Shown: positions 30,108-47,346, counted from the stretch's first letter. The stretch is DNA of 64,000 bases from Thermoplasmatales archaeon (GCA_038729485.1 JAVYRX010000005.1:1417-65416), one strand, 5' to 3'. Notes: a model not told the origin generated them from the sequence alone. Numbers and translations are program-made.

Positions 30108-30218
30108 AAACCGGCATTTGTTGGCATCTGAAAGCGAATTTGAAGTTGACGAAAAATTAGAATGATATCTGTATGTGATTTTTTTTATGTTCCCTCAATG
30201 ATCTTTAAGGAATTATGA

Positions 30219-30249
30219 TGCTTACAGGTAAGGGTACCAGATTAATATT
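30219..30249 (+). promoter_or_regulatory. Palindromic operator candidate plus TATA-like box upstream of the SatP-family gene
   Basis: TGCTTA-CAGG-TAAGGG (30219-30234), 7 nt gap, then TTAATATT. Confidence 0.5.
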
Positions 30250-30286
30250 CAATAGAATATTATTTAAAGTTAAGGAGGTATCTTTA

Positions 30287-30913
30287 ATGACAGACGAAAT
30301 GAAAAAGGGTGACCCAACGGCCCTGGGTGTATTTTCCTATGGCTTCGGACTGATGATTTTGTCTCTTTACGCACTGGGTGTATTCAGTTGGAACGAGAGT
30401 GCGGCATTAATGGCTCCCGCATTGGTGTTTAGCGGACTGTTACTACTAGTTGCGGCAAACTGGGAATACAACAACGGAAACACTTTCGGAGCCACAGCAT
30501 TTGGGGTTTACGCCGGTTTCTTCTTAACGTTCGCAGTTGCCACATTTGCACTGAAGCTCGGATGGATGACGGGCATTGCGCATACGCATCTTGTAGGCAT
30601 GATGGCACTTGCCTTTGTTTTCATGACGTTCTTTTTATGGCTTGGAAGCTTTAAGATAACTCTGATTCATAACATCATGCTTTTCTTCCTTCTGGTGACA
30701 TTTATACTTTGGGCAATTCCGCTTTTGAGCATGACTGCTACTGGATCCATTTTTGGCAGCATGCCAGGAGCCGTGTTTCCTGCGGGGATTGCGGGTATAA
30801 TAGACGTAGTATTCACGACCTATCTAGCCGGTGCAGTAATAGTGAATGACCGGTGGGCAACTGCGGGACTGAAGCCACCGCTTCCGCTATGGCCATTAGG
30901 CAAGAAAAATTAA
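30287..30913 (+). CDS. SatP/YaaH/Gpr1/Fun34-family small anion (acetate/succinate) channel
   Basis: GDPTALG (family NPAPLG) and GNTFGATAFGVYAGFF motifs; ~6 TM helices; AGGAGG SD before ATG 30287. Confidence 0.88.
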   Translation: MTDEMKKGDPTALGVFSYGFGLMILSLYALGVFSWNESAALMAPALVFSGLLLLVAANWEYNNGNTFGATAFGVYAGFFLTFAVATFALKLGWMTGIAHTHLVGMMALAFVFMTFFLWLGSFKITLIHNIMLFFLLVTFILWAIPLLSMTATGSIFGSMPGAVFPAGIAGIIDVVFTTYLAGAVIVNDRWATAGLKPPLPLWPLGKKN

Positions 30914-30940
30914 AATTTTTTTAACCTTTCTTTTTTTTAC
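30914..30940 (+). terminator. Oligo-T tract, probable archaeal terminator
   Basis: TTTTTTT...TTTCTTTTTTTT directly after the stop codon, between convergent genes. Confidence 0.55.
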
Positions 30941-30955
30941 GTAAGTATTTCCATG

Positions 30956-31597
30956 TCATCTGCTTTTTAATTTAAGGGTCTTGAAGACGTTAAGTGCGTA
31001 AGTGAACGCTGCATCATCCTGTCCTTTGTCTACTAGCTTCCAGAAATTATCGTCTTCAAATAGGCGTTGAAAATAGATTGCTTTGGTGCTATGCTCTGTA
31101 GCGATTATTTCATTCCTTACCTTCTCCAGAATTGGCAGAGCGCAAGAGTAAGAATTCACCACCGACGATATCTTCTTTCTTAGAAACCTGGATAGTGAAG
31201 GAGATTTTCCCTCCGTTGAAACGCTAACGATGACTCCATTAGAGTCCAACACAGCTGGGAAAATGAACGGGCTGTCTCTCCTGTCGACGCTGTTGAAAAG
31301 GACACCTTTTCTTTCGCAATAATCTCTAATCTCTTCATTTAGTTCAGGCTCATCGCTGGCAATAACCACGATTGTGTTTCTTTCAATGAATTTATCCAAT
31401 TGAGACGGTTCAGTGATATGGAGTCGCACGGTTTCAACGTTCTTGCCCTCTATCATCTCCTTGAATTCATCGGCTACCACGATTATTCTATCGAACTTGG
31501 AAGACAGATTATTCAACTTCTGTGCGGCAGCTTTTCCTCCGCCGATTATCAGCAATTTCTTCCCTGTGACATTGAGCATTATTGGAATGAATTTCAT
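30956..31597 (-). CDS. sirC: Precorrin-2 dehydrogenase / sirohydrochlorin ferrochelatase (SirC/Met8/CysG-N)
   Basis: MKFIPIML..TGKKLLIIGGG, NSVD, FIFPA, VSTEGKSP. Confidence 0.9.
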   Translation of the reverse strand: MKFIPIMLNVTGKKLLIIGGGKAAAQKLNNLSSKFDRIIVVADEFKEMIEGKNVETVRLHITEPSQLDKFIERNTIVVIASDEPELNEEIRDYCERKGVLFNSVDRRDSPFIFPAVLDSNGVIVSVSTEGKSPSLSRFLRKKISSVVNSYSCALPILEKVRNEIIATEHSTKAIYFQRLFEDDNFWKLVDKGQDDAAFTYALNVFKTLKLKSR

Positions 31598-31598
31598 T

Positions 31599-32456
31599 TC
31601 ATCTTCCTCTTGTGGTGGCTTCCTGCGAGACCTGGGGTTCAACCAGCTCGATTAACGCATCTCCGGTAGCACGAGATAAATTACGCGATGGTAGAATTCC
31701 TTCGTCAATAAGCGCGTTAACTACTTTCCCTATGACAATGATGCTAGGTGATCTTATTCTATGTTTTTCTATTACGCTTGGCAGTTCGCGAAGATAGCAA
31801 AAGAATGTGCGTTCCCGCCTAGTAGTTCCGTTTTCGATAACGGCGACGCCCATCAATTGATCCATTCCACCCTCAATGAGATGAGACACTATTTCTGAGG
31901 CAGTTGCAACGCCCATTAAAATAACTATTGTTCCGTCGAATCTCGAAATTTCATTCCAATCGTTTTCCGTTCCAGTGGATTTTCTATGGCCGGATATAAT
32001 CAACAATGATGAAGAGTAATTCCTGTGCGTTAATGGTATCCCTAAGGCGCTGGGAACTGATATTGCAGACGTGAGTCCAGGAACAACCTCGAATGGAACG
32101 TTGTTTTTCTTTAAAAACTCTATCTCCTCTCCTCCCCTGCCGAATATAAAAGGGTCGCCTGATTTCAATCTTATAATGATTTTTCCAACCTTAAAGTATT
32201 GAAGCATTAGCTCGTTTATTCTATCCTGTTTGGATCCAGGCTCAACTCCATGTTTAGTTCCAACGCAAATCCTTTTACATGATGCCGGAGAGAGTTTGAC
32301 AATACTTCGATCAACGAGCCTGTCATAAAGAAGCACATCGCATTTCTTTATCAATTTCAAAGCCCTTACTGTAAGGTAATCCGGATTTCCCGGGCCCGCT
32401 CCCACTAAATATATTTTTTTAGAAATTTTTAAATGTTCACCTTTTTTTCGTTCCAT
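31599..32456 (-). CDS. cobA: Uroporphyrinogen-III C-methyltransferase (SUMT)
   Basis: [43 protein letters not shown]. Confidence 0.95.
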
Positions 32457-32468
32457 GTTCTTATCCTT

Positions 32469-33854
32469 TTATAGCTCAATAGCGTAGCCTACCAGATCCA
32501 TCAATCCATGATTTTGCATGTCTACCTTGTGATAGTTCATTACAAATGGGAATTGTGCTTTGTCTATTGCACAAGGCGATACCATGTGGTGTGAGCCCGT
32601 TTTCCAGGAAAAGTACACTGCGGGCCATCCGGCCCAAGCCCTGTACTCATTCCATTCTTTTTCATCCGCAAGAAGGCCTCCTCCTGCACCACAGCAGAAT
32701 GTTTTCTCTTTGGTGAATTCCGATTCTACAGTTTCCCTTACTACTGCGTTAAGGACGAACCGCGGCTCATTTACAAGGTTGCCGCCTCTCGCGAGGTTGC
32801 ACGGATCGTGATAGTTGTAAAGGTCGTCATTCTTGTTTTTGTCTACCTTAATTTTCCCCCTTTCAATTGCCTTCCACGTAACCTGATGTATATGCCTTAG
32901 CTGTATCCCCTTTTTTTCCAGTTCATACCTGACATAGTTATTCGCCGTTCTCCATCCATGACCGCACTCTCCCCAAACGACGAGCTTAACTCCTCTTTTA
33001 ACAGCTTCGTTAACTACAATGTCTCCAAATTCTCTCATGTGTCGTTCGCTCGCAAACGTTCCAAAGTTTGCAGCCTCAGTTGCGGCTGAGGATAGAGTCC
33101 AATCAGTGCCGAGGGCAAATAGCGTCTTTGCATAACCCTTAAGTGTGTCGTTGTTTACAGCTATGTCTGCAGAAGAGGGAACTACAAGAACTTCGGAATG
33201 GGAAATATCTACTGGTATTTTGATTTCCTTCCCAGTCTCTGAAAGCATCTCTTCCTCAAGAAATCCAGTTACATTTTTTATGAATTTATCCTTAAGACCC
33301 ATGTTGTTACCCGTCTTGTAGACCTGAGACATAGTTGCTGCAACGTACTCAGGTATCAGTCCCATATCTGTTAAAATATTCCTAATATTTCTTGTTATTT
33401 CAGATTGGTCAATTCCCGAAGGGCAAAAAACAGAACATCTCCTGCACTCCGTACACTGATAATAGTAAGAATAGAGGCGATTTAGATCTATCTGATCTTT
33501 CTTAATCCTCCCTCTTGCCCTGTAGATGTCTCTTACAAGATTAGCTCTCCCTACTGGTGAGTTGTTTGGATCTCCGGTAGCTATGAACATCTGGCACTTG
33601 TCGATGCATTCGCCGCAACGTACGCAGCTCTCCATAAATGTTACGAAGGCCTTACTTTTCCTAAGTTCTTCAAACCTCTTAATGAAATAGTCATTGTCTT
33701 CCTCCCTGCTTACTTTGATGTCCTTAAGAAGTGGTTCTTTTGCAGGCCTTTCAAAGGTAGACTGAGCCCACTCGAGTGTTTTCTGTTTTGATAGCCACTC
33801 CTCTGCCTTTCCGCTGGGACTTTCTAGAATTATGTTCCTAATTTTTGGATTCAT
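32469..33854 (-). CDS. dsrK: DsrK, HdrD-like Fe-S/CCG protein
   Basis: CVRCGECIDKC and CTECRRCSVFCP ferredoxin motifs, GECGHGWR, YHDPCN, FCCGAGGG, PCAIDKAQ. Confidence 0.93.
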   Translation of the reverse strand: MNPKIRNIILESPSGKAEEWLSKQKTLEWAQSTFERPAKEPLLKDIKVSREEDNDYFIKRFEELRKSKAFVTFMESCVRCGECIDKCQMFIATGDPNNSPVGRANLVRDIYRARGRIKKDQIDLNRLYSYYYQCTECRRCSVFCPSGIDQSEITRNIRNILTDMGLIPEYVAATMSQVYKTGNNMGLKDKFIKNVTGFLEEEMLSETGKEIKIPVDISHSEVLVVPSSADIAVNNDTLKGYAKTLFALGTDWTLSSAATEAANFGTFASERHMREFGDIVVNEAVKRGVKLVVWGECGHGWRTANNYVRYELEKKGIQLRHIHQVTWKAIERGKIKVDKNKNDDLYNYHDPCNLARGGNLVNEPRFVLNAVVRETVESEFTKEKTFCCGAGGGLLADEKEWNEYRAWAGWPAVYFSWKTGSHHMVSPCAIDKAQFPFVMNYHKVDMQNHGLMDLVGYAIEL

Positions 33855-34596
33855 TTATCTCACCAGGATGGAAAATCGAGTACATCGTTGGATTTGTGAA
33901 GAATGAATATGGGTGCATAAATTTGCTAAACGGAAAGTAAATTAGAAGTGTGGAAGCAATGAGAAAATGTACCACGAATTGAATTGCGGTCGGAACGAAT
34001 ACGGGTGACAAGTGTATGAGGGAATATATGAAAGGCGTTACTTCGTTATAAGCGTAAAGCGGAGGAAGTGTAAATCTCATAATTATTCCGGATACTCCAA
34101 GAGCAAGTATCAGTAGGATTGAAAAATAATCGGACAAGTAGCTTATTTTTCTCATATATATGCTGCTATTCCTTCTGATAAACAAGTAGGCCCCAAATCC
34201 CACCATCACTATGGCCAGTGAAGTTCCGAGGTAGTCTCCAATTGCGGACATTGCCTTTTCGCTCACGCCTATTGATGAAAAATAAGGCATTAGCACTATG
34301 TCAAGATGGGCTGCTATTACTATCCATAGCGTCCAGTGAAAGATGGCGGATGAAATTCTAAGTGAGGGATCGTTTTTCATACTAGAGAATAGAAATATCC
34401 TAGAGAGAATGTTCTTGAACGCAAGTAATCTTGTGTTATTCCCAGGATATGTGAAAAGGTAAGGATACCCCAGAAACGTTCCGGAGGGTCCTTTTGGGAC
34501 GAATATCCATCTTATCAAGGTGACTATTGTTCCAATGACGAATACTATAACTGCAATGTATGCATACGCGACAATGGCCCAATCTACAGGACTCAT
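33838..34596 (-). CDS. dsrM: DsrM, NarI-like membrane b-type cytochrome
   Basis: Several TM helices with heme His residues (FHW...AAH; VHF...YFPFSKFMH); lies between dsrB and dsrK. Confidence 0.92.
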   Translation of the reverse strand: MSPVDWAIVAYAYIAVIVFVIGTIVTLIRWIFVPKGPSGTFLGYPYLFTYPGNNTRLLAFKNILSRIFLFSSMKNDPSLRISSAIFHWTLWIVIAAHLDIVLMPYFSSIGVSEKAMSAIGDYLGTSLAIVMVGFGAYLFIRRNSSIYMRKISYLSDYFSILLILALGVSGIIMRFTLPPLYAYNEVTPFIYSLIHLSPVFVPTAIQFVVHFLIASTLLIYFPFSKFMHPYSFFTNPTMYSIFHPGEINESKN

Positions 34597-34624
34597 ACCA
34601 CGTCACGCCATCCATCTGGAATGC

Positions 34625-35695
34625 CTAAGCAGTCCCTCCATCCCTAAGAGTCATTATTCCCCTGATGTCTAGATATTCCATGTTTTGTTCAAAGTAGGGA
34701 ATACCGGTCTTTTCAAAGAATTTCTCCCACCCTATTCTGTCAACCCAGTCCGCGATCCTTTCTCCTTTCCTGGCATCCTTCTTCCAGGTATCAACAATCC
34801 TGACCACTGCAGCTACGGTTTTAGGATAGTATGGTGGCTCATTAGGAAGGTAAGGTATTACAATCCTCGAGAGAGTGGTGCCAACCCTTGATGGAACGGC
34901 CTTCCCTCCAATTGCGATTGCGTGTCCGTCTGTTTTTTCAGGTGTTTCAAATATTATTCCAGCACATGCCCCTACGCATAGGCCACAGCCTATGCACAGA
35001 TTTCCCCTAATTTCAAGGGTTTTGGAACCGTCCGGCAGCTGCTTTATCTGAATTGCCCCTACCGGGCAGGTATATGCCGTTCCCTGGAGATCGCATTTTG
35101 CCACGTCTGGCGTTATTATGGGAATTTCAGTATGAATGCCACTTATAGATATATCTGTAAGGAAGCTGTTTCCACAGGAACTAGGACATCCGGATGCAGC
35201 AACGGTCAATTTTGCAGGCAATTCTTCCTTGTTGAAGTATTTGCCAAGCGCGTTTGCAATATTTTGAACAATGGACGGCGCGTCTGTTGCCGCCAAAGCA
35301 CAGTGAAAATAACCGGCACAGGACGTCAGGCTCCACAGGTGTCCGTCCCATCCTCCAACGGGAAAACCGAGGGCCATGAGATCAGTCCTCAATGCGATTG
35401 CATCCTTCAAGTCCTTAGTTATGAATTCCATGTTGATCGCTCCGGTGAATCTCATACTACCTCCGGAATATTTACGAGCAAGAGCAGAAATTTTCCTCAT
35501 CGTTTCAGTACTGTATCTCCCATTTGGGGTTGAACCCGCCCTCACTGTGTATATCTTATTTCCGTTTATATCTACATGCTCAACTATTCCAGGTTCCACT
35601 ATCTTATGCGATTTCCATTTGCCGATGGAATCTTTTAAATAAGTGGGTATGAAGTTTGTGTATGGTCTGGGTGGCCCTTCCTGCAATTTAATCAC
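34625..35695 (-). CDS. dsrB: Dissimilatory sulfite reductase beta subunit
   Basis: GKWKSH...PG, YTVRAG, GFPVGG, CAGYFHC (CX5C), SGCPSSC, CIGCGLC, GERIADWVDRIGWEKFFEKTG. Confidence 0.95.
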   Translation of the reverse strand: MIKLQEGPPRPYTNFIPTYLKDSIGKWKSHKIVEPGIVEHVDINGNKIYTVRAGSTPNGRYSTETMRKISALARKYSGGSMRFTGAINMEFITKDLKDAIALRTDLMALGFPVGGWDGHLWSLTSCAGYFHCALAATDAPSIVQNIANALGKYFNKEELPAKLTVAASGCPSSCGNSFLTDISISGIHTEIPIITPDVAKCDLQGTAYTCPVGAIQIKQLPDGSKTLEIRGNLCIGCGLCVGACAGIIFETPEKTDGHAIAIGGKAVPSRVGTTLSRIVIPYLPNEPPYYPKTVAAVVRIVDTWKKDARKGERIADWVDRIGWEKFFEKTGIPYFEQNMEYLDIRGIMTLRDGGTA

Positions 35696-36872
35696 CTCCC
35701 ACAGCTTTGTTTACTTCTTTCGGAATTTCCTCTCTGGCTTTCTCATCCACGGCATAGAATACATTTGTCCTTAGGTCTTTAGAATTCATCGCCCTTGGTT
35801 TTTCTTTCAGCATATCTAAGAATCCCTTCATTCCAACTCTCAATAGCATATCTCCAATCCTCTCTTTCCTGGCTGCCTGATCAATGTAAACCTCAACTAT
35901 CCTGTCAATAATGTCAAGTGCTTCATCAGGCGAGTTGAGCTTAGTTAGTAATTTTCCAGTCAGCGGTCCCTTCTTTCCTCTTAATTTTCCCCCGATGTAA
36001 ATGAGGTATTCTTTCTCCTTTCCGGGCATTATTGCGCCTTTACTCTTCCTAACGCACAACATGCATTGATTGCAGTCTTCTCCTCTGATGCTTATCGTAT
36101 TTCCAAGGCGGGAGATTGCACCTGTAGGACAATTGTTCACAATCCGATCGATTTCCTCGTTTGTCAAATTTTTGATAAGGCTTTCATTCACGTCTGGAGC
36201 GCCCTTCCATGACCCTACTATCCCGATATCTGCTTTTTGAGTTGCTCTTCCGCAGTCAATAGGGCAACCGGAAACCTTAACCTTCACCTTGTGGGGAAAT
36301 GTTGGATACTTGGCAAAATCGTTGTATCTATCATAAAATTTATCTCTGAACTCTTCCGTATTTAGATTAGAATATTCACACAGAGCGCTCCCAACACAGG
36401 TAGTCGTTGCCCTAAATGCATCGCCTGTTGAACCACATTCGTAGCCATTTTGTCTTAGTTCGGCAATGAAATCCCTTATTTTTTCCTTAGGTATTCCGGG
36501 CACTTCTATATCCTCTCCAGTGCTTATGGCGTGAATAAGGCCAACTCCATACTTATCCGCAAGTTCACATAACTTGTCTAGCATGTCGGAAGTCACAAAA
36601 TTTCCGGAGGGAATCAGAATTCTTACGATGTTAGCACTCTCTCCGATGTCAGGCCTGCTCGTTACTCTCATGAGGATTCCGGTTGGGGCTCCTGGCACAG
36701 AAACGTAGCCACCGGTCGTAAATAAATCACGTTTCAATGCTAAAGAAGCCCCGTACAAATCCACGGGATATCGAGTCTTTTGTGCCTCTTTTACGAAATT
36801 TGGCCATTCGCCCTTCTTGAGGTCGTCTAGTATTTTTCTTCCTCTAACAACTTCTTCTGGCAATTCCGTCAT
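35688..36872 (-). CDS. dsrA: Dissimilatory sulfite reductase alpha subunit
   Basis: LDDLKKGEWPNFV, CVGSALCEY (CX5C), FPHKVKVKVSGCPIDC, CPTGAI...CNQCMLC, ERIGD. Confidence 0.95.
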   Translation of the reverse strand: MTELPEEVVRGRKILDDLKKGEWPNFVKEAQKTRYPVDLYGASLALKRDLFTTGGYVSVPGAPTGILMRVTSRPDIGESANIVRILIPSGNFVTSDMLDKLCELADKYGVGLIHAISTGEDIEVPGIPKEKIRDFIAELRQNGYECGSTGDAFRATTTCVGSALCEYSNLNTEEFRDKFYDRYNDFAKYPTFPHKVKVKVSGCPIDCGRATQKADIGIVGSWKGAPDVNESLIKNLTNEEIDRIVNNCPTGAISRLGNTISIRGEDCNQCMLCVRKSKGAIMPGKEKEYLIYIGGKLRGKKGPLTGKLLTKLNSPDEALDIIDRIVEVYIDQAARKERIGDMLLRVGMKGFLDMLKEKPRAMNSKDLRTNVFYAVDEKAREEIPKEVNKAVGGD

Positions 36873-37171
36873 TTTTTTCCACCCCTAAACTCATCTAAGG
36901 CAAATTTTGTTCCAACAACGTAACCTTTATTTTTTAGATATTGAGAAAACTGGTTTTGTTCGTCCTGGCCTAGTTCTACCTTTATGATTGGTATCTCACT
37001 TTCGTTGGCTTCTATCTTTTCGCATTTAGGAATAACATTAATGCAATTTGGGCATATCTGGTCCCTCGTGAGAAGGTACTTCATTCTTTTTGATCTCACG
37101 GGATTTGAGGCCTCCTCCTCCGTAAAGATATCGATTGCGTATCCGCATATTGGACATACAAGATAGATCAT
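36869..37171 (-). CDS. Unknown 100-aa Cys-rich (CPIC...CPNC) protein inside the dsr operon
   Basis: ATG abuts the dsrC stop and its stop overlaps the dsrA ATG. Two CxxC motifs. Confidence 0.75.
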   Translation of the reverse strand: MIYLVCPICGYAIDIFTEEEASNPVRSKRMKYLLTRDQICPNCINVIPKCEKIEANESEIPIIKVELGQDEQNQFSQYLKNKGYVVGTKFALDEFRGGKK

Positions 37172-37522
37172 CTACACACACCCCGTAGGTTTAGGAGCCC
37201 CAGCCATCCTACAGGCTCCCTTTGCAGGGCCCGTTGGGAATAGCTGGTATATGGTCTTAAGATCAAATCCAGTACTTTTTGTAAGCATCCTAATCGGTGG
37301 GCAACTGTCGTAGGTTAGATAATATTCACGCAGATAATTTATGATCTTCCAGTGCTCGTCTGTGAGCGTTGAAATGCCCTCTTCTGCAGAAATCGCATTC
37401 ACAAATTCTGGGCACCAGTCTGCTGGGTTTAAGATAAAACCATCCTCGTCAATTTGTATGTCCTTGTAAGACCCATCTTTCAGCTTAACTTTTACAACTT
37501 TATTGTTGCTTTGCTCGGCCAT
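37172..37522 (-). CDS. dsrC: DsrC sulfur-carrier protein, both C-terminal cysteines present
   Basis: IDEDGF, LTDEHW.II.YLR.YY, LFP.GPAKGACRMAGAPKPTGCV (CX10C). AGGTG SD before ATG 37522. Confidence 0.96.
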   Translation of the reverse strand: MAEQSNNKVVKVKLKDGSYKDIQIDEDGFILNPADWCPEFVNAISAEEGISTLTDEHWKIINYLREYYLTYDSCPPIRMLTKSTGFDLKTIYQLFPTGPAKGACRMAGAPKPTGCV

Positions 37523-37550
37523 AAATAGCACCTAGCTTAGCATAGTAAAA

Positions 37551-37583
37551 TTAATTATCAATTGGACACCTTACAGATTAGGT
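37551..37583 (-). promoter_or_regulatory. Palindromic operator candidate plus TATA-like box of the dsr operon
   Basis: Minus strand: ACCTAA-TCTG-TAAGGT (37583-37568), 6 nt gap, then TTGATAATTAA. Confidence 0.55.
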
Positions 37584-38003
37584 AAAATACGACAGAATTG
37601 GCTTTAATCGCGTTGACGGTTGCGGCCTGGTCTAAAAAATTATATTCTATCTCAGCTGAAGCTTAAAAGTAATTACGCAGCCTTATTTTGTTTAACAGAG
37701 TATAATCCTTAAGAGATTATCAAAGTGTTCAAAGGATCTGAATAGGCTGCAGAATGATATTATTAAATACGAGACGTGGATAGTTCGCAACCGGATTATT
37801 AGAACGTTAAACAGTATTCTCACGACTGTAATTCTAGGCACATCGTAGCTTATTGATGTGACAGATCTAATTACTGCGTTAATAACCAGATGCGATGAAA
37901 CGTAGACCGATTGATTTCGTATACAAATTAAACAAATGGTTATAATTTATAGCAAATCTTCTGGATTGAACTCTAAAAACAAGCACAATTTTATTTTTCT
38001 CTG

Positions 38004-38023
38004 AATCCAGATTACTCTGGATT
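38004..38023. repeat. 8-bp perfect inverted repeat in the dsrC-dsrE intergenic region
   Basis: AATCCAGA-TTAC-TCTGGATT. Confidence 0.5.
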
Positions 38024-38171
38024 TTCAGTCTAGCTAGTTTTACTTTTTTCAATATGAAGAAATCAATGAATGAATAGATCTAAATTTCATAAAGAATCCA
38101 AGTGGATCAATTTCATAAATTTTATAGAATGGGCCTTGAATTATGTGGGGCTGTACCAAACCTTGGCGGTA

Positions 38172-38227
38172 CTTAAGCATTGGGCTATTATGCTTATTTC
38201 CCGAATGCTTAAGGGAGTGGATTAAAC
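38172..38227 (+). promoter_or_regulatory. 10-bp inverted repeat and operator-like site upstream of the DsrE-like gene
   Basis: CTTAAGCATT (38172-38181) / AATGCTTAAG (38204-38213). The right arm lies within CCCGAA-TGCT-TAAGGG, followed 6 nt later by TTAAAC, ~28 nt before the ATG. Confidence 0.5.
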
Positions 38228-38249
38228 TCTTAGATCAACATTTTAAACC

Positions 38250-38624
38250 ATGAGCCAAGGAGAGATCTCAAAGAACAAGAAGATAGCATTTTTTTCCATG
38301 GTTCCTCCAAGTGACAATGCAAGACTAGAAACAATGTTGGGCTATGCTAACGCAGCTGCGTTAATGGACTATGAAACTTTGATTTTCTTCTATCTAGATG
38401 GAGCCATAATAGGAAAGAAGCAGGTCTTTGAAAAATTGGATCAAAAAATTAGGGACAGAGTTAAGGAATCCCTGGACAACGAAGTCATATTACGAATATG
38501 CTCACTTGCAGCCAAGACGTTCGGAATAGACAAGTCCAATTTAGTCCCAGGGTTTGAAATAGCGGGAATAGCGTTTTTCTTTGCCTACGCTGAGGATGCC
38601 GATATAGTTCTTTCTTGGAGTTAA
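38250..38624 (+). CDS. DsrE/F-like (peroxiredoxin-family) sulfur relay protein
   Basis: IFFYLDGA, one Cys in RICSLAAKTFG, PGFEIAG...AEDADIVLSW; 124 aa DsrE-fold pattern. Confidence 0.8.
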   Translation: MSQGEISKNKKIAFFSMVPPSDNARLETMLGYANAAALMDYETLIFFYLDGAIIGKKQVFEKLDQKIRDRVKESLDNEVILRICSLAAKTFGIDKSNLVPGFEIAGIAFFFAYAEDADIVLSWS

Positions 38625-38659
38625 TAGAAGTACCAATTGAAGTGTTATCCCGGGTAATG

Positions 38660-39265
38660 TCACGACTCGTAAAGGTAGTTAGATACAGTTTTCTTTAATC
38701 CTCTTCTGAGCAGTTCTGAGAGAGAAGCGGGAGTAACGCCTAGGAAGTGAGAAAGCTCCGTCAATGATATCCTGCCTTCTATGTCAAAATAGCCTTTCCT
38801 AAGAGCTTCTTCCAATGCATATCTTTCCTTTTGGGTCAATTCCTGATGCATAAATGGTGAAACGCTCATTATTGTATATTTCAATCCCGTGTTATCCAAT
38901 TCCTTCTTGAAAAGCTTGAGATCCCCTCTTGAAGCAATTAGGAACCTGACTTGCACATGATTTTTGCCTATTGAATGTGTTCCGATAGGGTTTATGAAGT
39001 GGATTTTTGAGACCAAGCTGCAAACAGAGCAGCTAGGACTTTCTATCCAGAATGCTCCATTTCCGACCCTGCGGAGCTTGAGGTTTTTTAATCTGGAAAC
39101 ATCTATGGGGTCGCATGAGTCCGTCGGCTTAACTCTATGAAGCGTATAGTCAGGTCTCATGAGAAGCCTAACTATAGTGCAATTGACGTCGGCCAAGGCA
39201 TTTGTAACTATGCAGTCTTCCCTTTCAATTTCGACAACTACTTCCAGGGCAGTTTTGGCTGTCAT
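38660..39265 (-). CDS. Bat/HTH-10 family archaeal transcriptional regulator with CxxC in the N-terminal domain
   Basis: C-terminal LTQKE..ALEEALRKGYFD..GRISLTELS..LGVTPASLSELLRRG; SCSVC motif. Confidence 0.9.
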   Translation of the reverse strand: MTAKTALEVVVEIEREDCIVTNALADVNCTIVRLLMRPDYTLHRVKPTDSCDPIDVSRLKNLKLRRVGNGAFWIESPSCSVCSLVSKIHFINPIGTHSIGKNHVQVRFLIASRGDLKLFKKELDNTGLKYTIMSVSPFMHQELTQKERYALEEALRKGYFDIEGRISLTELSHFLGVTPASLSELLRRGLKKTVSNYLYES

Positions 39266-39448
39266 ATCACTTTACTACCCCTATGTATATTCCATTCATA
39301 AACCTTTTAGCATGTAATGTGGCAGAATTAACTTACGAACTTCGGTCAATCAAAATTCTTCATTCGAAATACAACCTCCAATAAATGTAGAGAATGAGAA
39401 AAATATGTCACATCACGCTTCTATAATTGGCAATTTTTAGAGCAGCAA

Positions 39449-39509
39449 GCCTTACGGATAAAGGTATAGTCTTTTATAATTTTCGTAAATTTAACCTTAT
39501 AGACTAGCT
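39449..39509 (+). promoter_or_regulatory. Two palindromic operator candidates flanking the TATA box of aprBA-qmoABC
   Basis: GCCTTA-CGGA-TAAAGG (39449-39464), 7 nt gap, TTTTATAA (39472-39479). Second copy ACCTTA-TAGA-CTAGCT (39494-39509) is 13/16 identical to the dsrC site. Confidence 0.55.
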
Positions 39510-39572
39510 TGGCCGTGCGTAAATCAACGCATGCCAATAGAAGAGGCTAGACTATAGGAGTTGTAGATAATA

Positions 39573-40025
39573 ATGCCGACTTATGTAAACCCAGAGAAAT
39601 GTGATGGTTGTAAAGCGCTAGCTAGAACTGCCTGTCAGTACATATGTCCAAACGACCTGATGCTGCTGGACATGACGAAAATGAAGGCATATAATCAGGA
39701 GCCAGATATGTGCTGGGAGTGCTTTTCATGTATAAAGACATGCCCAAAGGATGCAATTGAGGCAAGGGGATATGCGGATTTTGTCCCCCTTGGAGCAAAG
39801 GTTACACCTAAAAGAGGGACCGACTCAATTTTGTGGACCGTTAGGTTCAGAAACGGGAAGATCCTGAGATTCAAGTTTCCAATTAGGTCAACACCTTGGG
39901 ATTCTATTGATCCATTTCAGGGTTTTGAATCTCCCACTTTGAACATGCTAAAAGGTCCCGAATTAGCGGGTGGCCATGAATGCAAAGATCCCCAAAAGAT
40001 CACGCTAAAGAAAAAGGGAGCCTAA
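39573..40025 (+). CDS. aprB: Adenylylsulfate reductase beta subunit
   Basis: MPTYVNPEKCDGC...ACQYICPNDLM...CWECFSCIKTCP...RGYADFVP...WTVRFRNG..LRFKFPIR. Confidence 0.97.
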   Translation: MPTYVNPEKCDGCKALARTACQYICPNDLMLLDMTKMKAYNQEPDMCWECFSCIKTCPKDAIEARGYADFVPLGAKVTPKRGTDSILWTVRFRNGKILRFKFPIRSTPWDSIDPFQGFESPTLNMLKGPELAGGHECKDPQKITLKKKGA

Positions 40026-40039
40026 GGGGTGAAAAATAT

Positions 40040-41980
40040 ATGGCTGTTGAATCTTATAAGAAAATTGAAACCTATAAGGCATCCGATGTTCAGACAAAGG
40101 TAGTCGAGACTGATGTCTTGATAATAGGGGGAGGGATGTCAGGCTGCGGAGCGGCTTATGAAGCAGCTTACTGGGCTAAGGCAGCGGGAAAGAACGTAAC
40201 TCTTGTCGAGAAGGCCGCCATAGAAAGAAGTGGGGCAGTCGCCCATGGCCTCTCTGCAATAAATTGTTATCTTGGACTGTCAGGAAGGTCACAATTTACA
40301 AATAATAAACCAATAACGCTTGAAGAATTCGCCAGATACGTAACCCTTGATATGATGGGAGTCTCAAGAGAAGACCTTGTTGTAGACTATGCGAGAAACG
40401 TGGATGATTCTGTTCATCTCTTTGAGAAATGGGGCCTCCCGATATGGAAGGATGAGAACGGAAAATATGTCAGAGAGGGAAGATGGCAGATAATGATCAA
40501 CGGGGAATCGTACAAGCCTATAGTGGCAGAGGCAGCCAAGAAAGCAATAGGTGAAGCGAACATATACGAGAGGGTCTACATAACGCATCTCCTATTGGAT
40601 AAGGATGACAGGAGCAAGGTTGCTGGTGCGGTGGGATTCAGCGTGAGGGATCCGATATTCTACGTCTTTAAGGCTAAGGCCGTTATCATTGCCACAGGGG
40701 GAGCTACCGGCCTGTTTAGACCTAAGAGCACCGGTGAGGGAATGGGAAGAATATGGTACGCTGTTTTCAATACCGGCTCAGGTTACGCAATGGCAATAGA
40801 GGCAGGTGCACACACTACTCAGATGGAACACAGATTCATACCGACTAGATTCAAGGATGGTTACGGACCAGTTGGAGCATGGTTCCTCCTATTCAAGAGC
40901 AGGGCTACGAACGCGTATGGAATGGATTACACAGAAAATACAGCTGCAATAGAAAAATACAAGCCCTACGCCAACGCATCACCTGTACCTACGCCGCTTA
41001 GGAATCATCAGATGATTGAAGAGATGGTTCAGGGGCGCGGCCCAATATACATGAGAACTGAAGAAGCCCTCCAGAAGCTTTCAGCAGGTGACCCAAAGAA
41101 TACTAAAAAGTTGCTCGAAGATGCATGGGAGGATTTCCTAGATATGACAATAGATCAGGCACTCCTTTGGGCAGCCACCAATACGGAGCCAGAAAATGCA
41201 CCTTCTGAGATTGTTGCTGCGGAGCCATACCTGATGGGTTCGCACTCTGGATGTGCAGGCCTATGGGTGTGCGGTCCTGAAGATTTAATGCCAGATGAAT
41301 ACAAGAAATTGTTTCCCCTTTCGTATAACAGGATGACAACCCTAAAGGGGTTGTTTGCAATAGGCGACAACGCAGGTGCGAGCCCTCATAAATTCTCTAG
41401 CGGTTCATTTACTGAAGGAAGAATAGCGGGAAAGGAGGCAATAAGGTACGCAGTTGAACAGGGCGATGCAACAGTTGACGACTCTAAGATAGAAGAGCTG
41501 AAGAAGAAAATATTCAAACCGATGGAAACGTACGATCAATTCAAAAATGCTACGACCGCTGAGGAGGTTAATCCAAACTACCTATTTCCTAAGCAGACAT
41601 TATGGAGGCTCCAGAAACTCATGGACGAATATGCAGGCGGCCCTTCTACCTGGTTCAGGACAAATGACCACATGCTCAATGAGGGTCTTAAGAAATTGCG
41701 CCTTCTGAGGGAGGACATGGATAAGGTTGCAGCAAGAAACCTGCATGAGCTGATGCGAGCGTGGGAAATGAACCACAGGATAACCGTTGCTGAGGCACAC
41801 ATGGAGCACCTTAGATTCAGAAAAGAAACTAGATGGCCCGGGTATTACTATAGGACGGACTATCCGGAAATAAACGACAATGAATGGAAATGTTTCACCG
41901 TGGGGAGGAAGAATCCTGCAACAGGAAACTGGGACATTCAAAAGGTGCCTTTCATTCAGGTGGCAGATTACACAATCTGA
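40040..41980 (+). CDS. aprA: Adenylylsulfate reductase alpha subunit
   Basis: ERSGAVAHGLSAIN, WQIMINGESYK, RFKDGYGPVGAWFL, WEDFLDMT, HKFSSGS, ETRWPGYYYR. GGGGTGA SD before ATG 40040. Confidence 0.98.
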   Translation: MAVESYKKIETYKASDVQTKVVETDVLIIGGGMSGCGAAYEAAYWAKAAGKNVTLVEKAAIERSGAVAHGLSAINCYLGLSGRSQFTNNKPITLEEFARYVTLDMMGVSREDLVVDYARNVDDSVHLFEKWGLPIWKDENGKYVREGRWQIMINGESYKPIVAEAAKKAIGEANIYERVYITHLLLDKDDRSKVAGAVGFSVRDPIFYVFKAKAVIIATGGATGLFRPKSTGEGMGRIWYAVFNTGSGYAMAIEAGAHTTQMEHRFIPTRFKDGYGPVGAWFLLFKSRATNAYGMDYTENTAAIEKYKPYANASPVPTPLRNHQMIEEMVQGRGPIYMRTEEALQKLSAGDPKNTKKLLEDAWEDFLDMTIDQALLWAATNTEPENAPSEIVAAEPYLMGSHSGCAGLWVCGPEDLMPDEYKKLFPLSYNRMTTLKGLFAIGDNAGASPHKFSSGSFTEGRIAGKEAIRYAVEQGDATVDDSKIEELKKKIFKPMETYDQFKNATTAEEVNPNYLFPKQTLWRLQKLMDEYAGGPSTWFRTNDHMLNEGLKKLRLLREDMDKVAARNLHELMRAWEMNHRITVAEAHMEHLRFRKETRWPGYYYRTDYPEINDNEWKCFTVGRKNPATGNWDIQKVPFIQVADYTI

Positions 41981-42007
41981 ATTTTCCTTTTTATCCGGTG
42001 ACACCTA

Positions 42008-43255
42008 TTGAACGTGGATCTCCTGGTCATAGGGGCTGGGCCTTCCGGAATAACCGCCTCCCTTGAAGCTGCTGAATTGGGCTTAACAGTAGCCTTGGCG
42101 GAAAGAAACCCGTACATAGGAGGCCGGGTAGTCCAGTTTTTCAAATATTTTCCAAAGCTGTGCCCGCCACAGTGTGGTCTTGAGATATTCACTAAGAGAA
42201 TGAAGGCTTTAGGCAACATAAAGCTCTTAACAAATGCATCCGTGAAGAGCATCGTAAGGGATGGAGAATATTTAGATGCTAGAGTTCTGGTTCATCCAAG
42301 ATTTGTCAACGATAGATGTACGGCGTGTGGAAAGTGCGTTGATGTGTGTCCAGTAACGAGACCCGATAGCTTCAATCTTTCGTTGGGAAACACGAAAGCC
42401 ATATACCTCCCAAATTCCTATGCATACCCGTTCATTTATTCTATAGACGATAAATACTGCAAGGGAAAGGAATGTTCAAAGTGCGTCGAGGCCTGTCCGT
42501 ATGATGCCATTGACCTTGACGAAAGGGAAGAGGCAATAAAAATTGTATCTAAGTCCGTAGTTATAGCGACCGGTTGGGAACCATATGATGCAACAAAAAT
42601 TTATGGTCTAGGGTTTGGAAAGTATCGTAACGTCATTACAAATTTAATGCTGGAAAGGATGGCGTCTCCTAATGGCCCAACCAGAGGGAAGATTGTTAGG
42701 TTGTCTGACGGAAAAGAGCCTAAGAGAATTGCGTTCGTTCAGTGTGCTGGGTCTAGGGACGAGAATAATCTTCCTTACTGTTCCCAGATATGCTGTTTAG
42801 CTTCTATGAAGGAAGCGCAGTATATTCGTAGCCAGTGTAAAGAGTCTGAAGTGGAAATATTCTACATAGACCTTAGAGCATATGGTCTTAATGAAAATTT
42901 CCTGAGAAAGATCGTATCTGACAATTCCATTAAATTGACTAGAGGCAAGGTAACCAGGATAGCTGAAAATGAAACAGAAAACCTCCTAGTTAGAGCAGAA
43001 GACACTATTACTGGTAAGAAAATAACCGAGGAATTTGATCTTGTCGTTCTAGCGACCGGTATGGAGCCGACAGCCAAAAAAGAAGGCATAGAAGGCGTTA
43101 GCTATGACGAGTGGGGGTTTGTCGTAGATCAAGATGGAATATTCGGTTCGGGTGTAGCGGGGAGGCCAATGGACGTCAAGCAGTCTAATGAAATGGCTAC
43201 TGGAGTCGTATTAAAAGCCTTGCAGAAGGTCGCTGAGGTAAGGGGTAAGAAATGA
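42008..43255 (+). CDS. qmoA: QmoA (HdrA-like flavoprotein)
   Basis: IGAGPSG, YFPKLCPP.CG, VQCAGSRDE..LPYCS.ICC.AS.K; directly follows aprA. Confidence 0.93.
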   Translation: MNVDLLVIGAGPSGITASLEAAELGLTVALAERNPYIGGRVVQFFKYFPKLCPPQCGLEIFTKRMKALGNIKLLTNASVKSIVRDGEYLDARVLVHPRFVNDRCTACGKCVDVCPVTRPDSFNLSLGNTKAIYLPNSYAYPFIYSIDDKYCKGKECSKCVEACPYDAIDLDEREEAIKIVSKSVVIATGWEPYDATKIYGLGFGKYRNVITNLMLERMASPNGPTRGKIVRLSDGKEPKRIAFVQCAGSRDENNLPYCSQICCLASMKEAQYIRSQCKESEVEIFYIDLRAYGLNENFLRKIVSDNSIKLTRGKVTRIAENETENLLVRAEDTITGKKITEEFDLVVLATGMEPTAKKEGIEGVSYDEWGFVVDQDGIFGSGVAGRPMDVKQSNEMATGVVLKALQKVAEVRGKK

Positions 43256-45480
43256 AAGATGATGCAAGGGCATTCATATGTAAAGGGTGTGGCATTGGTG
43301 AAAGGTTGGACTTGGTAAAGTTGAAGGAGATAGCAGAAAAGGAATACTCTGCACAGACAGTGATCTGCGATCAACTTTGTAATGAATCTAGTGTGATCAG
43401 AGAGTGCTTGGCAAACGGAGCTAAAAAGGTGCTAATTGCGGCATGCACACAGCGTGAAAAAATACCAAATTTTCAATTTGAAAATGCAATCATTGAAAGG
43501 GTTAATCTGAGGGAAGGCGTAGTCTGGTCTCATAAGGGCGAGGATGATCAGCAGGGAATGGCAGAGGATTATATAAGGATGGGATTTGCCTCCCTCAAAA
43601 ATAAATCTCCCCCCAATCAACTCGAATTGGCTCAGTCTAAAGACATTTTGGTCATAGGAGGAGGGATCACAGGCATCACAGCCGCGTCAGAAATTTCAAT
43701 GGCTGGATATAATGCTTTCCTGGTGGAAAAAGAGGAGAAATTGGGTGGCAAATTGAACTTCTACGATAAAATACTCCCTATCCATTTCCCGTATACTGAT
43801 CTCATCGATGCTAAAAAATTCCTTGAAGAAAAGATGAAAGAGGTCAGCCAGCATAGCAATTTGAAAATATTGACGTCAAGCACAGTCACTAGCGTTACCG
43901 GTCAGCCTGGAGCTTTCTCTGTCGTTGTGAAGAACCCTAGTGGCGAGTTGAATCTTAATGTCGGAGCTATTGTTGTGGCGACAGGATGGAATCCATACGA
44001 TGCTAAGAAGATTACAAAATTAAAATATGGTCAAAGTCCGCTAATCATGACAAACGTAGAAATAGAAAGATACCTCTGCAAGAAGAAGAGCGAGCTGAAT
44101 TCGCAGGGATCTCCGAAATCGTTTGCTTTCGTTCTCTGTGCTGGTCAAAGGGACACAGAGAATATACCTTATTGTTCCTCTGTTTGCTGCCTCACTTCTT
44201 TGAAGGAAGCCCTCATGCTACGGAATAAGGTTAAGGAATCAAAGGTGTACATTTTTTACAAGGATATAAGGGCGCTTGGCATATATGAGGAGTTCTACAA
44301 AAAGGTGCAGAGGGATCCAAACATATTCCTTGCCAAAGCAAACGTAGAAGACATATCTTTTGAGGAAAATGAAAACAAGGTCATTCTGACGGTTCGTGAT
44401 ACGACCCTCAATGTTGATTTGGATGTTAGGGTTGACAGGGCCGTTCTTGCGGTTGGAATTCTTTCATCCATGTTAGGTCTATATAATGTGAAGGAAGAGC
44501 ATCCAGATTCGGGGCCCTTGATTTACGATCATCTCAACCCGGTACCGCTAAGTGAAGGTAATAGTGCTTTAGGAGGAGAGAGAATACTGAACTTGAAATA
44601 TAGACAGGGACCAGAACTGCCAACACTTAGCGACGGGTTCCCTGATTCACATTACATCTGTTTCCCCTACGAGTCTAGGAGAACTGGCATTTTCCCTGCA
44701 GGTACTGTTCGTTCTCCGTCTACGATTCTTGAATGCATGGAGGATGCAAGGGGTGCTGCATTGAAGGCGATAAAAACTGTGGAGCTTGCATTTAAGGGGG
44801 AGATAGTAGAACCTCCACGGGTCCTGGAAGCAGATCACATAACGATATCTCTTCAGAGATGCACACAATGTAGAAGATGTACGGAAGAATGCCCATTTGG
44901 CGCTCTCGACGAGGACGATAAGACATATCCACTCTATAATCCGTTGAGGTGTCGAGATTGCGGAATATGCATGGGAGCGTGTCCTGTACAGGCGATATCA
45001 TTCAATCTGTATTCCGTAGAGCAAATGCATAGCATGATAAAATCAATAAAAACCCCGGAAAAAGAAGACAAATTAAGGATACTTGTATTTGCTTGCGAAA
45101 ATGACGCTTATCCTGCACTAGATATAGCCGCGCAGAATGGCATAAAATATTCAGACGAAGTCAGGATCATTCCCGTAAGATGTCTTGGTTCTGTTAATTC
45201 AGTCCTTATAGCGGACGCACTTTCTGCAGGGATCGACGGGATCCTCATGTTAGGCTGCAAATATGGCAAGGATTACCAATGTCACTTCATAAGGGGCTCG
45301 GAACTCGCAAGCCTTCGCCTTGAAGGTCTCAAGGGTACGTTCGAAAATCTAGCTCTTGAGCCAGAACGTCTCAGTCTTCAACAAATTGAACTTTCCGACT
45401 GGAACAAGCTGTCAGGTGTCATAGATCAATTCGTCGGAACCGTAAGAACATTTGGACCAAATCCATATAGGGGGTTCTGA
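43252..45480 (+). CDS. qmoB: QmoB (HdrA-MvhD fusion)
   Basis: ERVNLREG, CAGQRD, YRQGPELP, SHYICFPYE.RRTGI, CTQCRRCTEECPFG, and MvhD-like CENDAYPA...CLGS...YQCHF. Confidence 0.95.
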   Translation: MKDDARAFICKGCGIGERLDLVKLKEIAEKEYSAQTVICDQLCNESSVIRECLANGAKKVLIAACTQREKIPNFQFENAIIERVNLREGVVWSHKGEDDQQGMAEDYIRMGFASLKNKSPPNQLELAQSKDILVIGGGITGITAASEISMAGYNAFLVEKEEKLGGKLNFYDKILPIHFPYTDLIDAKKFLEEKMKEVSQHSNLKILTSSTVTSVTGQPGAFSVVVKNPSGELNLNVGAIVVATGWNPYDAKKITKLKYGQSPLIMTNVEIERYLCKKKSELNSQGSPKSFAFVLCAGQRDTENIPYCSSVCCLTSLKEALMLRNKVKESKVYIFYKDIRALGIYEEFYKKVQRDPNIFLAKANVEDISFEENENKVILTVRDTTLNVDLDVRVDRAVLAVGILSSMLGLYNVKEEHPDSGPLIYDHLNPVPLSEGNSALGGERILNLKYRQGPELPTLSDGFPDSHYICFPYESRRTGIFPAGTVRSPSTILECMEDARGAALKAIKTVELAFKGEIVEPPRVLEADHITISLQRCTQCRRCTEECPFGALDEDDKTYPLYNPLRCRDCGICMGACPVQAISFNLYSVEQMHSMIKSIKTPEKEDKLRILVFACENDAYPALDIAAQNGIKYSDEVRIIPVRCLGSVNSVLIADALSAGIDGILMLGCKYGKDYQCHFIRGSELASLRLEGLKGTFENLALEPERLSLQQIELSDWNKLSGVIDQFVGTVRTFGPNPYRGF

Positions 45481-45481
45481 G

Positions 45482-46615: not shown

Positions 46616-47173
46616 TTATTTCCTTAGAATTGCAGCAAGTATCTCTTTGGAAGCTTCATTTGCCATTCCTGTTCTATTTTTCACGATCATGAATGGGCAT
46701 CCAGACATTGCTGAGTATGAAACTCCGTACATCCTGTTTATTTCTAAATGCGCTTGTATGTCGTCCTCAGAATCGCTGTCTCTGGATCTAGTAGAATCAT
46801 TGGCTCTCCTGAGAAATATATCGTGCGGATCAGCTTCCAAGGAGACTATCAAATCAGGTTTCAATATTTCCAGAATATGCCAAGGGATGCCGGGAAGGAA
46901 TCCGCTAGTAGTTTTTATTGAAAGATGCGTATCTATGATGACAGATTTTTTCTTAGAAAAGTAATCCGCAGCACCCTTTTGAATCTCAAGCTGAAGTTTA
47001 GGCGGCATCTTTCTCATCTCGTCCCTATCATTTACGTAGCCCTTCGAGACGGCCTGCTTGAGCATAATGTCTCCAAAATTCTCAACCGTCAATCCCGCAT
47101 TTACCAGATTTCCCAGGACAGTCGTCTTTCCAACCCCTGGAATCCCGCCTATGACAACCTTCGTACTAACCAC
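46616..47173 (-). CDS. adkA: Archaeal-type adenylate kinase
   Basis: GIPGVGKTT, NFGD.M, RDEMRK, IDTH...GFLPG.P, RR..D.TR.RD. Likely start is GTG 47173, not the longer ORF-track start. Confidence 0.9.
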   Translation of the reverse strand: MVSTKVVIGGIPGVGKTTVLGNLVNAGLTVENFGDIMLKQAVSKGYVNDRDEMRKMPPKLQLEIQKGAADYFSKKKSVIIDTHLSIKTTSGFLPGIPWHILEILKPDLIVSLEADPHDIFLRRANDSTRSRDSDSEDDIQAHLEINRMYGVSYSAMSGCPFMIVKNRTGMANEASKEILAAILRK

Positions 47174-47239: not shown

Positions 47240-47346
47240 GACGTTTTTGATTGTGGATTGCAATATATATGTTGAACCTCATCGATAAGGGAAACTGAAC
47301 TGTCAGTAACCTCGAAATGAAATTATAGTTGCTTTGTCCCTAATTC

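Follow-up and report, generated by a model that had tools for sequence, protein, structure and literature searches.

A palindromic operator shared by seven promoters of a Thermoplasmatales archaeon and its predicted HTH_10 regulator of dissimilatory sulfate reduction

We analysed a 64,000-nucleotide (nt) stretch from a Thermoplasmatales archaeon (the window; positions 1417–65416 of contig C5 in a genome of 1.31 Mb, 23 contigs and 92% completeness), in which genes of sulfur respiration are preceded by a 16-base-pair (bp) palindromic element. The original prediction had proposed that this element, placed at a fixed distance from the TATA box, is an operator common to co-regulated sulfur-respiration genes, and this core idea is supported by conservation, geometry and co-occurrence with a regulator gene. 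The element marks seven transcription units, namely sat, aprBA-qmoABC, dsrC-orf100-dsrABMK with the sirohaem genes, a DsrE-like gene, adk, a TauE/SafE permease gene and a SatP-like gene. Together these units make up the dissimilatory sulfate-reduction pathway, in which adenylate kinase recycles the adenosine monophosphate (AMP) released by adenosine 5′-phosphosulfate reductase. We think it likely that the element is a real transcription-factor operator, whose predicted binder, a homodimer of an HTH_10 protein encoded within the locus, would activate the whole sulfate-reduction set. Computation shows where the sites lie, how they are conserved and arranged, which units belong to the regulon and that motif and regulator gene occur together; the finding as a whole is a well-supported comparative-genomics prediction, not an experimental fact. 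The operators of this genome and the candidate regulator gene are as follows.

30219–30234, plus strand: operator of the SatP-like gene, TGCTTACAGGTAAGGG, with a 7-nt spacer (30235–30241) to the TATA-like TTAATATT that begins at 30242.
37568–37583, minus strand: operator of dsrC, ACCTAATCTGTAAGGT, with a 6-nt spacer (37562–37567) to the TATA box at 37554–37561 (TTGATAAT on the minus strand).
38200–38215, plus strand: weaker operator of the DsrE-like gene, CCCGAATGCTTAAGGG, 6 nt before the TATA-like TTAAAC at 38222.
39449–39464, plus strand: operator of aprBA-qmoABC, GCCTTACGGATAAAGG, with a 7-nt spacer (39465–39471) to the TATA box at 39472–39479 (TTTTATAA).
47276–47291, minus strand: operator of adk, CCCTTATCGATGAGGT, with a 6-nt spacer (47270–47275) to the TATA box at 47262–47269 (TATATATT).
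Contig C20, 10009–10024, minus strand: operator of sat (ATP sulfurylase, Pfam PF01747), CCCAAACAGATAAGGT, 7 nt before TTATATCA.
Contig C3, 109278–109293, minus strand: operator of tauE (TauE/SafE permease, PF01925), 15.2 bits with the second matrix described below.
38660–39265, minus strand: candidate regulator gene, encoding an HTH_10 protein of 201 amino acids (aa) (Pfam PF04967, 1.3e-11).

The four 16-mers first described, those of the SatP-like gene, dsrC, the DsrE-like gene and aprB, were all found where the original prediction had placed them when the sequence was re-read, together with their 6–7 nt spacers and TATA-like boxes. Sites were scored with two matrices, the first built from eight unique orthologous sites taken from other genomes only, with the adk and sat sites left out, and the second from 18 sites outside this genome. 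The first matrix ranks the apr (22.1 bits) and dsrC (19.0 bits) sites top in 2.6 million positions; the apr site is the best match genome-wide with the second matrix as well (20.2 bits), and the dsrC site scores at least 18.0 bits with either. Twenty-three unique sequences among 29 tabulated sites give the consensus (C/G/A)CC-T-(T/A)-A-(C/T)-N-G-A-TAAGG-(T/G), with an information of 19.2 bits. The element is a 7-2-7 palindrome whose ideal form is ACCTTAC-NN-GTAAGGT. All 32 sites are followed by a T-starting, A/T-rich box, 19 of them at +6 and 13 at +7, a rule that is satisfied at 15% of random intergenic positions. The operators therefore keep a 6- or 7-nt spacer throughout and lie upstream of the TFB-recognition element (BRE) and TATA box without overlapping them; the element abuts the BRE position, roughly from -54 to -38 relative to the transcription start.

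A genome scan filtered for this promoter geometry returned six matches at an 11-bit threshold: apr, dsrC, adk, tauE and two weak ones. The motif is thus not the general BRE variant that it might have been, since the filtered matches are regulon promoters plus these two. The SatP and dsrE sites fall below or near the threshold, and the sat site, which has the right geometry, was dropped by the intergenic test of the filter owing to a spurious crude open reading frame (ORF). Geometry matches before an MBF1-like gene (contig C10, 12.9 bits) and a DtxR-like gene (contig C1, 11.3 bits) were judged to be chance. Two further, identical matches beside apparent tRNA 3′ ends were rejected as operators, being a repeated flank with no promoter; the near-identical stretches of about 70 nt that follow the tRNA ends there (G000:C7:55688 and G000:C4:112603; TCGAATCCC-like) may be integration-site repeats.

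The same locus is syntenic in four other genomes of the genus (G016, G001, G011 and G004), which allowed the promoters to be compared base by base. In 28 pairwise comparisons over seven promoters, anchored on the site and leaving out G016 as a near-duplicate of G001, the mean pairwise identity was 0.78 within the site and 0.67 over the 16 nt that follow (spacer and TATA box), against 0.26–0.31 in each of four 16-nt bins upstream. Conservation begins sharply at the 5′ edge of the site, and the sequence further upstream is unalignable. The motif is therefore retained in orthologous promoters together with its spacing and TATA box. The dsrC site is kept in 5/5 promoters and the aprB site likewise in 5/5, including G004 although apr lies about 13 kb away on the contig there. 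The satP site is kept in all four promoters (at +7 in G016, G001 and G004), and the dsrE site in three of five, being conserved in G016 and G001, weak in G011 and missing from G004.

The matrices also recovered promoters that had not been described. The adk site scores 16.0 bits on the plus strand and 14.9 in the sense of the gene with the first matrix, and is kept in 4/4 promoters with a site of their own (at +6 in G016, G001 and G011); in G004 an adk-type site precedes a 140-aa ORF, which is followed by adk. The sat site scores 15.1 bits with the first matrix and is kept in four of five promoters (G001, G016 and G011 besides this genome), and the tauE site in four of four (G011, G001 and G004). 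By arithmetic from the genome-wide count, the 150 nt upstream of any one gene would hold a match of at least 14.9 bits by chance with a probability of about 1e-3. A degenerate pattern search of the four related genomes gave counts not above a backwards control, and was used solely as a lead to the sat and tauE sites of G011. The regulon first proposed, consisting of dsr, apr-qmo, the dsrE-like gene and the SatP-like transporter, thus holds for these four units but was drawn too small, as adk, sat and tauE also belong to it. G004 has one more site, in front of a 110-aa ORF that closely precedes the regulator gene.

The most likely binder of the operator is a homodimer of the 201-aa HTH_10 protein, whose gene is the only regulator gene kept at the locus in all five genomes of the genus. 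The HTH_10 domain occupies residues 143–194 (44.5 bits against a cut-off of 23.1) and is the only Pfam match in the 201 aa; NCBIfam holds no family for the protein. An alignment of twelve homologues shows invariant C18, W73, C79 and C82, the latter two forming a CxxC, and a near-invariant H43. In an AF2 model (mean pLDDT, the predicted local confidence, 88.9; pTM, the predicted template-modelling score, 0.76), the N-terminal region of roughly 140 residues forms a tandem alpha/beta domain, which best matches the N-terminal part of Thermoplasma Ta1207 (5m86; Z 9.7, root-mean-square deviation 3.5 Å over 131 aligned residues). Below Ta1207, the VIA structure comparison of this domain returned only common ferredoxin-like or ACT-like arrangements, from which no function follows, and a Foldseek search of the whole model against the PDB gave no clear match. 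The C-terminal domain superposes on sigma-70 region 4 and LuxR-type helix-turn-helix (HTH) domains with Z 7–8. Profile searching gave 55 clusters with E ≤ 1e-30 and 591 with E ≤ 1e-10, the closest named ones from Thermoplasma and other Thermoplasmatota, and many proteins of about 210 aa match profile positions ~64–202. The homodimer model scored 0.50 against 0.00 for the best control, with runs agreeing in at least 86% of contacts and a partner pLDDT of at least 82; of proteins solved as pairs of one chain, 20 of 30 reach the homodimer mark, compared with 1 of 23 among those solved as single chains. The predicted homodimer supports, and is consistent with, a dimer on a palindromic site.

In the mechanism that we propose, the HTH_10 dimer would bind the 16-bp palindrome and sit just upstream of TFB and TBP, where it would help to recruit them and so activate transcription. 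The N-terminal domain with its set of three cysteines and one histidine (Cys3-His) may sense the signal, which could be redox state, a metal or Fe–S cluster, or a sulfur species. It is the position of the site that points to activation, which we favour. Archaeal factors bound upstream of the BRE usually activate, and most characterised archaeal repressors bind over or downstream of the TATA box or start site. About half of the ordinary promoters of this genome have A at -6 and at -5 relative to the TATA start (0.49 at -5; n = 158), while the seven regulon promoters, read by eye, have A at -6 in 3/7 and at -5 in 0/7. The location of the site upstream of the BRE and the absence of A from -5 lend activation weak support.

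The same operator and the same HTH_10 binder could instead act in repression, with the protein occluding the loading of TFB and TBP, for example under oxic or sulfate-free conditions, until released by a signal. The 3′ edge of the site is 6–7 nt from the TATA box and abuts the BRE, so that a bound dimer could clash with TFB. However, the A-rich signal that ordinary promoters have at the BRE positions is missing from those of the regulon, which suggests that they need help, and the operator does not lie where most archaeal repressors bind. We therefore regard repression as unlikely, though deserving of serious consideration.

The assignment of the HTH_10 protein to the operator was examined through its distribution. 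Among 18 other genomes of the genus, orthologues of at least 66% identity occur in exactly the four that have dsrA orthologues (92% in G016, 92% in G001, 85% in G011 and 66% in G004). Promoter sites are missing from the dsr/apr loci without a regulator orthologue, i.e. those of G031, G034 and G040 (family f4) and of G018. Two of these, L047 (G034) and L048 (G031), are dsr-qmoC-sat-aprBA-qmoAB loci whose intergenic regions are very A/T-rich and which have neither an HTH_10 orthologue nor the operator; the sulfate-reduction pathway must be under another form of control in them.

A search of 169 genomes of the order found homologues of 40–47% identity in family f7, and the synteny of the regulator gene with respiratory genes extends over five genomes of the genus and five of f7. 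The f7 homologues of G114, G113, G112, G165 and G119 are directly divergent to dsrC-orf100-dsrA, and the full dsr operon with a convergent satP follows in the three f7 loci that are long enough to show it. All five f7 dsrC promoters carry variant palindromes (GCTCAC..TGAGGT, CCTCATGTGTGAGGG and GCCTGATCGATTCGGT) at +6 or +7 to the TATA box, as do the promoters of the f7 aprB-aprA-sat operons (4/4 examined, again at +6 or +7). Positions 2–3 (CC), 6 (A), 11 (T) and 14–15 (GG) are fixed in the f7 apr sites; the dsrC variants keep C3, A6, T11 and G14–15, with G or C at position 2. Co-variation of the CTCA/TGAG half-sites of f7 dsrC with the regulator was considered and dropped, as canonical TTA/TAA sites occur in the same f7 genomes. 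A site of at least 14 bits lies within the 3.5-kb locus of 7/7 f7 homologues of at least 39% identity; these 23.7 kb hold seven sites where 0.31 would be expected (Poisson P 4e-8; from four genera only), and none of the f7 sites was used in building the scoring matrix. For homologues below 36% identity, sites were found at 3/24 loci with 1.0 expected.

The motif is also found beside members of this subfamily that are away from dsr and apr. A perfect palindrome adjoins a paralogue of 40% identity in G011, and the DsrE-family gene that follows this palindrome at 44 nt is the first of an MvhD/HdrA-like operon. This operon, downstream of the paralogue (L040 9599–16584, G011:C1), comprises the DsrE-family gene, MvhD, two HdrA/Qmo-like genes, an ArsR-type HTH gene and an HdrC/QmoC-like gene; the paralogue has a weak site of its own in front of it (11.8 bits, at +7 of a TATA-like box). 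The homologue of G133 and G134 has a perfect or near-perfect palindrome some 65 nt upstream, which faces a membrane-protein gene, and no dsr lies nearby. In L075 (8864–9487) and L076 (8921–9544), both of f7, the regulator gene is closely followed by one for a 207-aa multi-pass membrane protein, whose promoter has a canonical operator at +6 to a TATA-like box; this second gene is likely an extra regulon member in f7. Since sites adjoin homologues in such differing contexts (f7 dsr, the DsrE-Hdr-like operon of G011, and G133/G134), the motif, as sequence comparison indicates, travels with the HTH_10 subfamily across two families and several gene contexts.

These observations bear directly on a further alternative, in which the operator is real but is bound by another factor encoded elsewhere, the clustered HTH_10 protein having another target or role. 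The HTH_10 gene's own promoter has no site in this genome, and a genome 92% complete leaves room for such a factor's gene to be outside the assembly. Against this stand the following of the HTH_10 subfamily by the motif, the contrast between the 7/7 loci of closer homologues and the 3/24 of distant ones, and the joint absence of orthologue and motif from other dsr/apr loci. The sole other regulator-like gene beside the regulon, the 110-aa ORF of G004 (a winged helix by eye), was rejected as a common regulator: it has no Pfam match, and tblastn found no match to it in this genome. A different binder is thus improbable, and we retain the HTH_10 homodimer as the predicted one.

It is very improbable that the basal machinery itself reads the element as a promoter-class signal, for instance through an alternative TFB/TBP or as an extended BRE. 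Its distance to the TATA box is fixed in every case, as such a signal would have it, but the 16-mer is two-fold symmetric and separated from the TATA box by a spacer the size of a BRE, it is confined to about seven promoters in 1.3 Mb, which all belong to one pathway, and ordinary promoters show no more than a modest enrichment of A at -6 and -5. Chance similarity, or a functionless remnant of recent promoter duplication, is hardly credible: the genome-wide matrix count equals expectation and two of the four first-described sites are weak, but conservation has a sharp boundary at the site, the matrices independently recovered sat, adk and tauE, the same architecture recurs in another family with regulators of 40–47% identity, and the flanks of sites in different promoters of one genome are unrelated to each other.

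Several observations weigh against an operator read by the HTH_10 protein as an activator. Matches of at least 14.9 bits number 11 in the 2.6 million positions, where 9.6 are expected by chance, so the genome-wide enrichment for which the original prediction had called is absent; because this count is not above chance, the case rests on placement and conservation. Two of the sites are weak and unremarkable taken alone: scored with a matrix to which this genome contributed nothing, that of SatP reaches 10.0 bits (the full matrix gives 14.6) and that of DsrE 10.9 bits. In G004, the dsrE promoter has no site and the sat promoter has only a doubtful one with a spacing of +4. The compared genomes are kin and few in number, the genus contributing about four lineages and f7 four genera, so the statistics overstate independence. 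In this genome, the regulator gene lacks a site with the usual geometry in its own promoter. A 22-bit site lies within the coding region of a 33% identical homologue (G036:C15; L050 9571–9586), whose gene stands between aprBA-sat and a sirC-cobA-dsrK stretch; this site fits no promoter model and is either a chance match or an internal site. The DNA-contact residues of the HTH are conserved even in distant homologues at motif-less loci, and for this reason specificity is not readable from the protein sequence. The gene cluster and the regulator may also have moved together, giving co-occurrence without regulation, and a BRE-adjacent position could serve repression as well.

A broader reading goes beyond the operator and its binder, and we offer it tentatively, as one that may or may not hold. 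In this reading, the HTH_10 protein would be the first known master regulator of archaeal dissimilatory sulfate reduction, a homodimeric activator gated by its Cys3-His set, as an Fe–S cluster or a thiol switch, and acting via one operator. That single operator would switch on sat, apr-qmo, dsr, sirohaem supply, AMP recycling by adk, the DsrE sulfur relay and transport by TauE and SatP. The operator–regulator pair is common to two families and would for that reason be ancestral to the Thermoplasmatales dsr locus, while paralogues would have been re-used for other redox operons, such as the DsrE-Hdr-like operon of G011 and the membrane-protein gene of G133 and G134.

The gene names given with the original prediction are borne out by Pfam and NCBIfam profile matches, and close protein relatives of the genome come from metagenome-assembled genomes named "Thermoplasmatales / Thermoplasmata archaeon" at source. 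Besides the regulator, the genes of the locus are as follows.

30287–30913, plus strand: SatP/GPR1/FUN34/YaaH-family transporter (channel) gene (Pfam PF01184, 1.6e-21).
30956–37531, minus strand: dsr operon, consisting of dsrC, a 100-aa ORF, dsrA, dsrB, dsrM, dsrK, a uroporphyrinogen (tetrapyrrole) methylase-like gene and a sirC-like gene (ORFs and Pfam).
36869–37171, minus strand: conserved 100-aa ORF between dsrC and dsrA (position and conservation).
38250–38624, plus strand: DsrE-like gene (Pfam).
39573–46606, plus strand: aprB, aprA, qmoA, qmoB and qmoC (Pfam; synteny).
About 46616–47173, minus strand: archaeal-type adenylate kinase gene, adk (NCBIfam NF003122, 199.9 bits, cut-off 155).

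The start of the SatP-like gene was placed at the ATG at 30287, behind AAGGAGGT, and a longer ORF start at 30215 was not adopted; the gene matches NCBIfam AceTr_1 with 50.0 bits, exactly at the cut-off of 50. The start of adk is uncertain, a GTG near 47173 being likely, and the gene adjoins qmoC in G016, G001, G011 and G004. The gene order of the dsr operon is identical in these four genomes and in family f7. The 100-aa ORF matched no Pfam or NCBIfam family, but occupies the same position in every dsr locus examined, in families f1, f4 and f7, with 47–80% identity; when the DNA is read by eye, an apparent CPICG-type cysteine pair lies near its N-terminus. The stretch between dsrC and dsrE is unusually long, about 720 bp compared to about 340–570 bp in the four related genomes, and its part at 37584–38199 has no ORF of at least 60 aa and no Rfam match, as an Rfam scan of the whole window gave none.

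As the median distance from TATA start to start codon in ordinary promoters of the genome is 30 nt, the dsrC and dsrE transcripts are probably leaderless. The apr leader would be about 95 nt long. Within it, at 39494–39509, the original prediction had noted a further copy of the element, and the 13/16 match to the dsrC site does exist when read on the plus strand. As a conserved operator, however, this copy was rejected, since it scores 4.7 and 6.5 bits and its left half is kept in 0/3 orthologous apr leaders compared (G004 excluded). Its conserved right part belongs to another conserved element of the apr leader, whose first arm it overlaps. The two arms, ATAGACTAGC (39499–39509) and GCTAGACTAT (39546–39562), are invariant in 4/4 aligned leaders of the genus, and a Shine-Dalgarno-like AGGAG directly follows the second. 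They can pair in a 10-bp stem with one A–A mismatch and a variable loop of about 40 nt, a stem that is without covariation because both arms never vary.

Archaeal control of dissimilatory sulfate and sulfite reduction is essentially undescribed. The original prediction knew of no archaeal dsr/apr regulator of this type, and a full-text literature search agreed in finding none: in the portions of text available, an Archaeoglobus transcriptome paper names no dsr/apr regulator and only speculates on regulatory links, a Diaforarchaea paper does not use the word "regulator", and a Thermoproteus genome paper names no dsr/apr regulator. The operator and the 201-aa candidate protein form a testable pair from an uncultured lineage. 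The regulon ties adk, the TauE/SafE permease, the SatP-like channel, the DsrE-like protein and the 100-aa ORF to the pathway, which aids genome reading, and the motif can serve as an annotation marker that tells which Thermoplasmatales dsr loci fall under this control.

Among known systems, SurR of the Thermococcales is a redox-switched sulfur-response regulator with a CxxC switch, and the position of its site relative to the BRE and TATA box sets activation or repression. Like the HTH_10 protein, SurR is an archaeal regulator of a sulfur-dependent energy pathway, but it has an ArsR-type winged helix, another motif and a role in S0 and hydrogen metabolism. In Deltaproteobacteria, Rex and other regulators control the transcription of sat and other sulfate-reduction genes; unlike the system described here, they are bacterial, act at sigma-70 promoters and are of unrelated protein families. 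NarO, discussed below, carries four cysteines in its N-terminal part. The protein shares its C-terminal HTH_10 domain with Bat, the bacterio-opsin activator and namesake of PF04967; in the text available, Bat carries PAS and GAF domains, whereas the protein here has the tandem alpha/beta domain (PMC11218638).

The closest precedent appears to be NarO of Haloferax volcanii and DmsR of Halobacterium salinarum, which the available text describes as short Bat-type regulators without PAS or GAF that activate denitrification and dimethyl sulfoxide (DMSO) respiration, respectively (PMC11218638). According to the same text, the nar, nirK, nor and nos promoters of Haloferax mediterranei have in common a semi-palindromic motif, CGAAYATDKTYG, and the regulator gene lies within the cluster (PMC11218638). 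The likeness is in the small size of the protein, its C-terminal Bat-type HTH, the lack of PAS and GAF domains and the position of its gene beside respiratory genes, and in the use of one clustered regulator and one shared promoter motif, here in seven promoters, for a whole terminal-electron-acceptor pathway. The systems differ in that sulfate/sulfite reduction takes the place of denitrification or DMSO respiration, Thermoplasmatota that of Halobacteriota, and CCTTAC-NN-GTAAGG that of the haloarchaeal motif. By this analogy, the predicted pair would follow the same logic with the same DNA-binding family in another pathway and phylum, and would extend the theme of short Bat-type regulators of anaerobic respiration beyond the haloarchaea.

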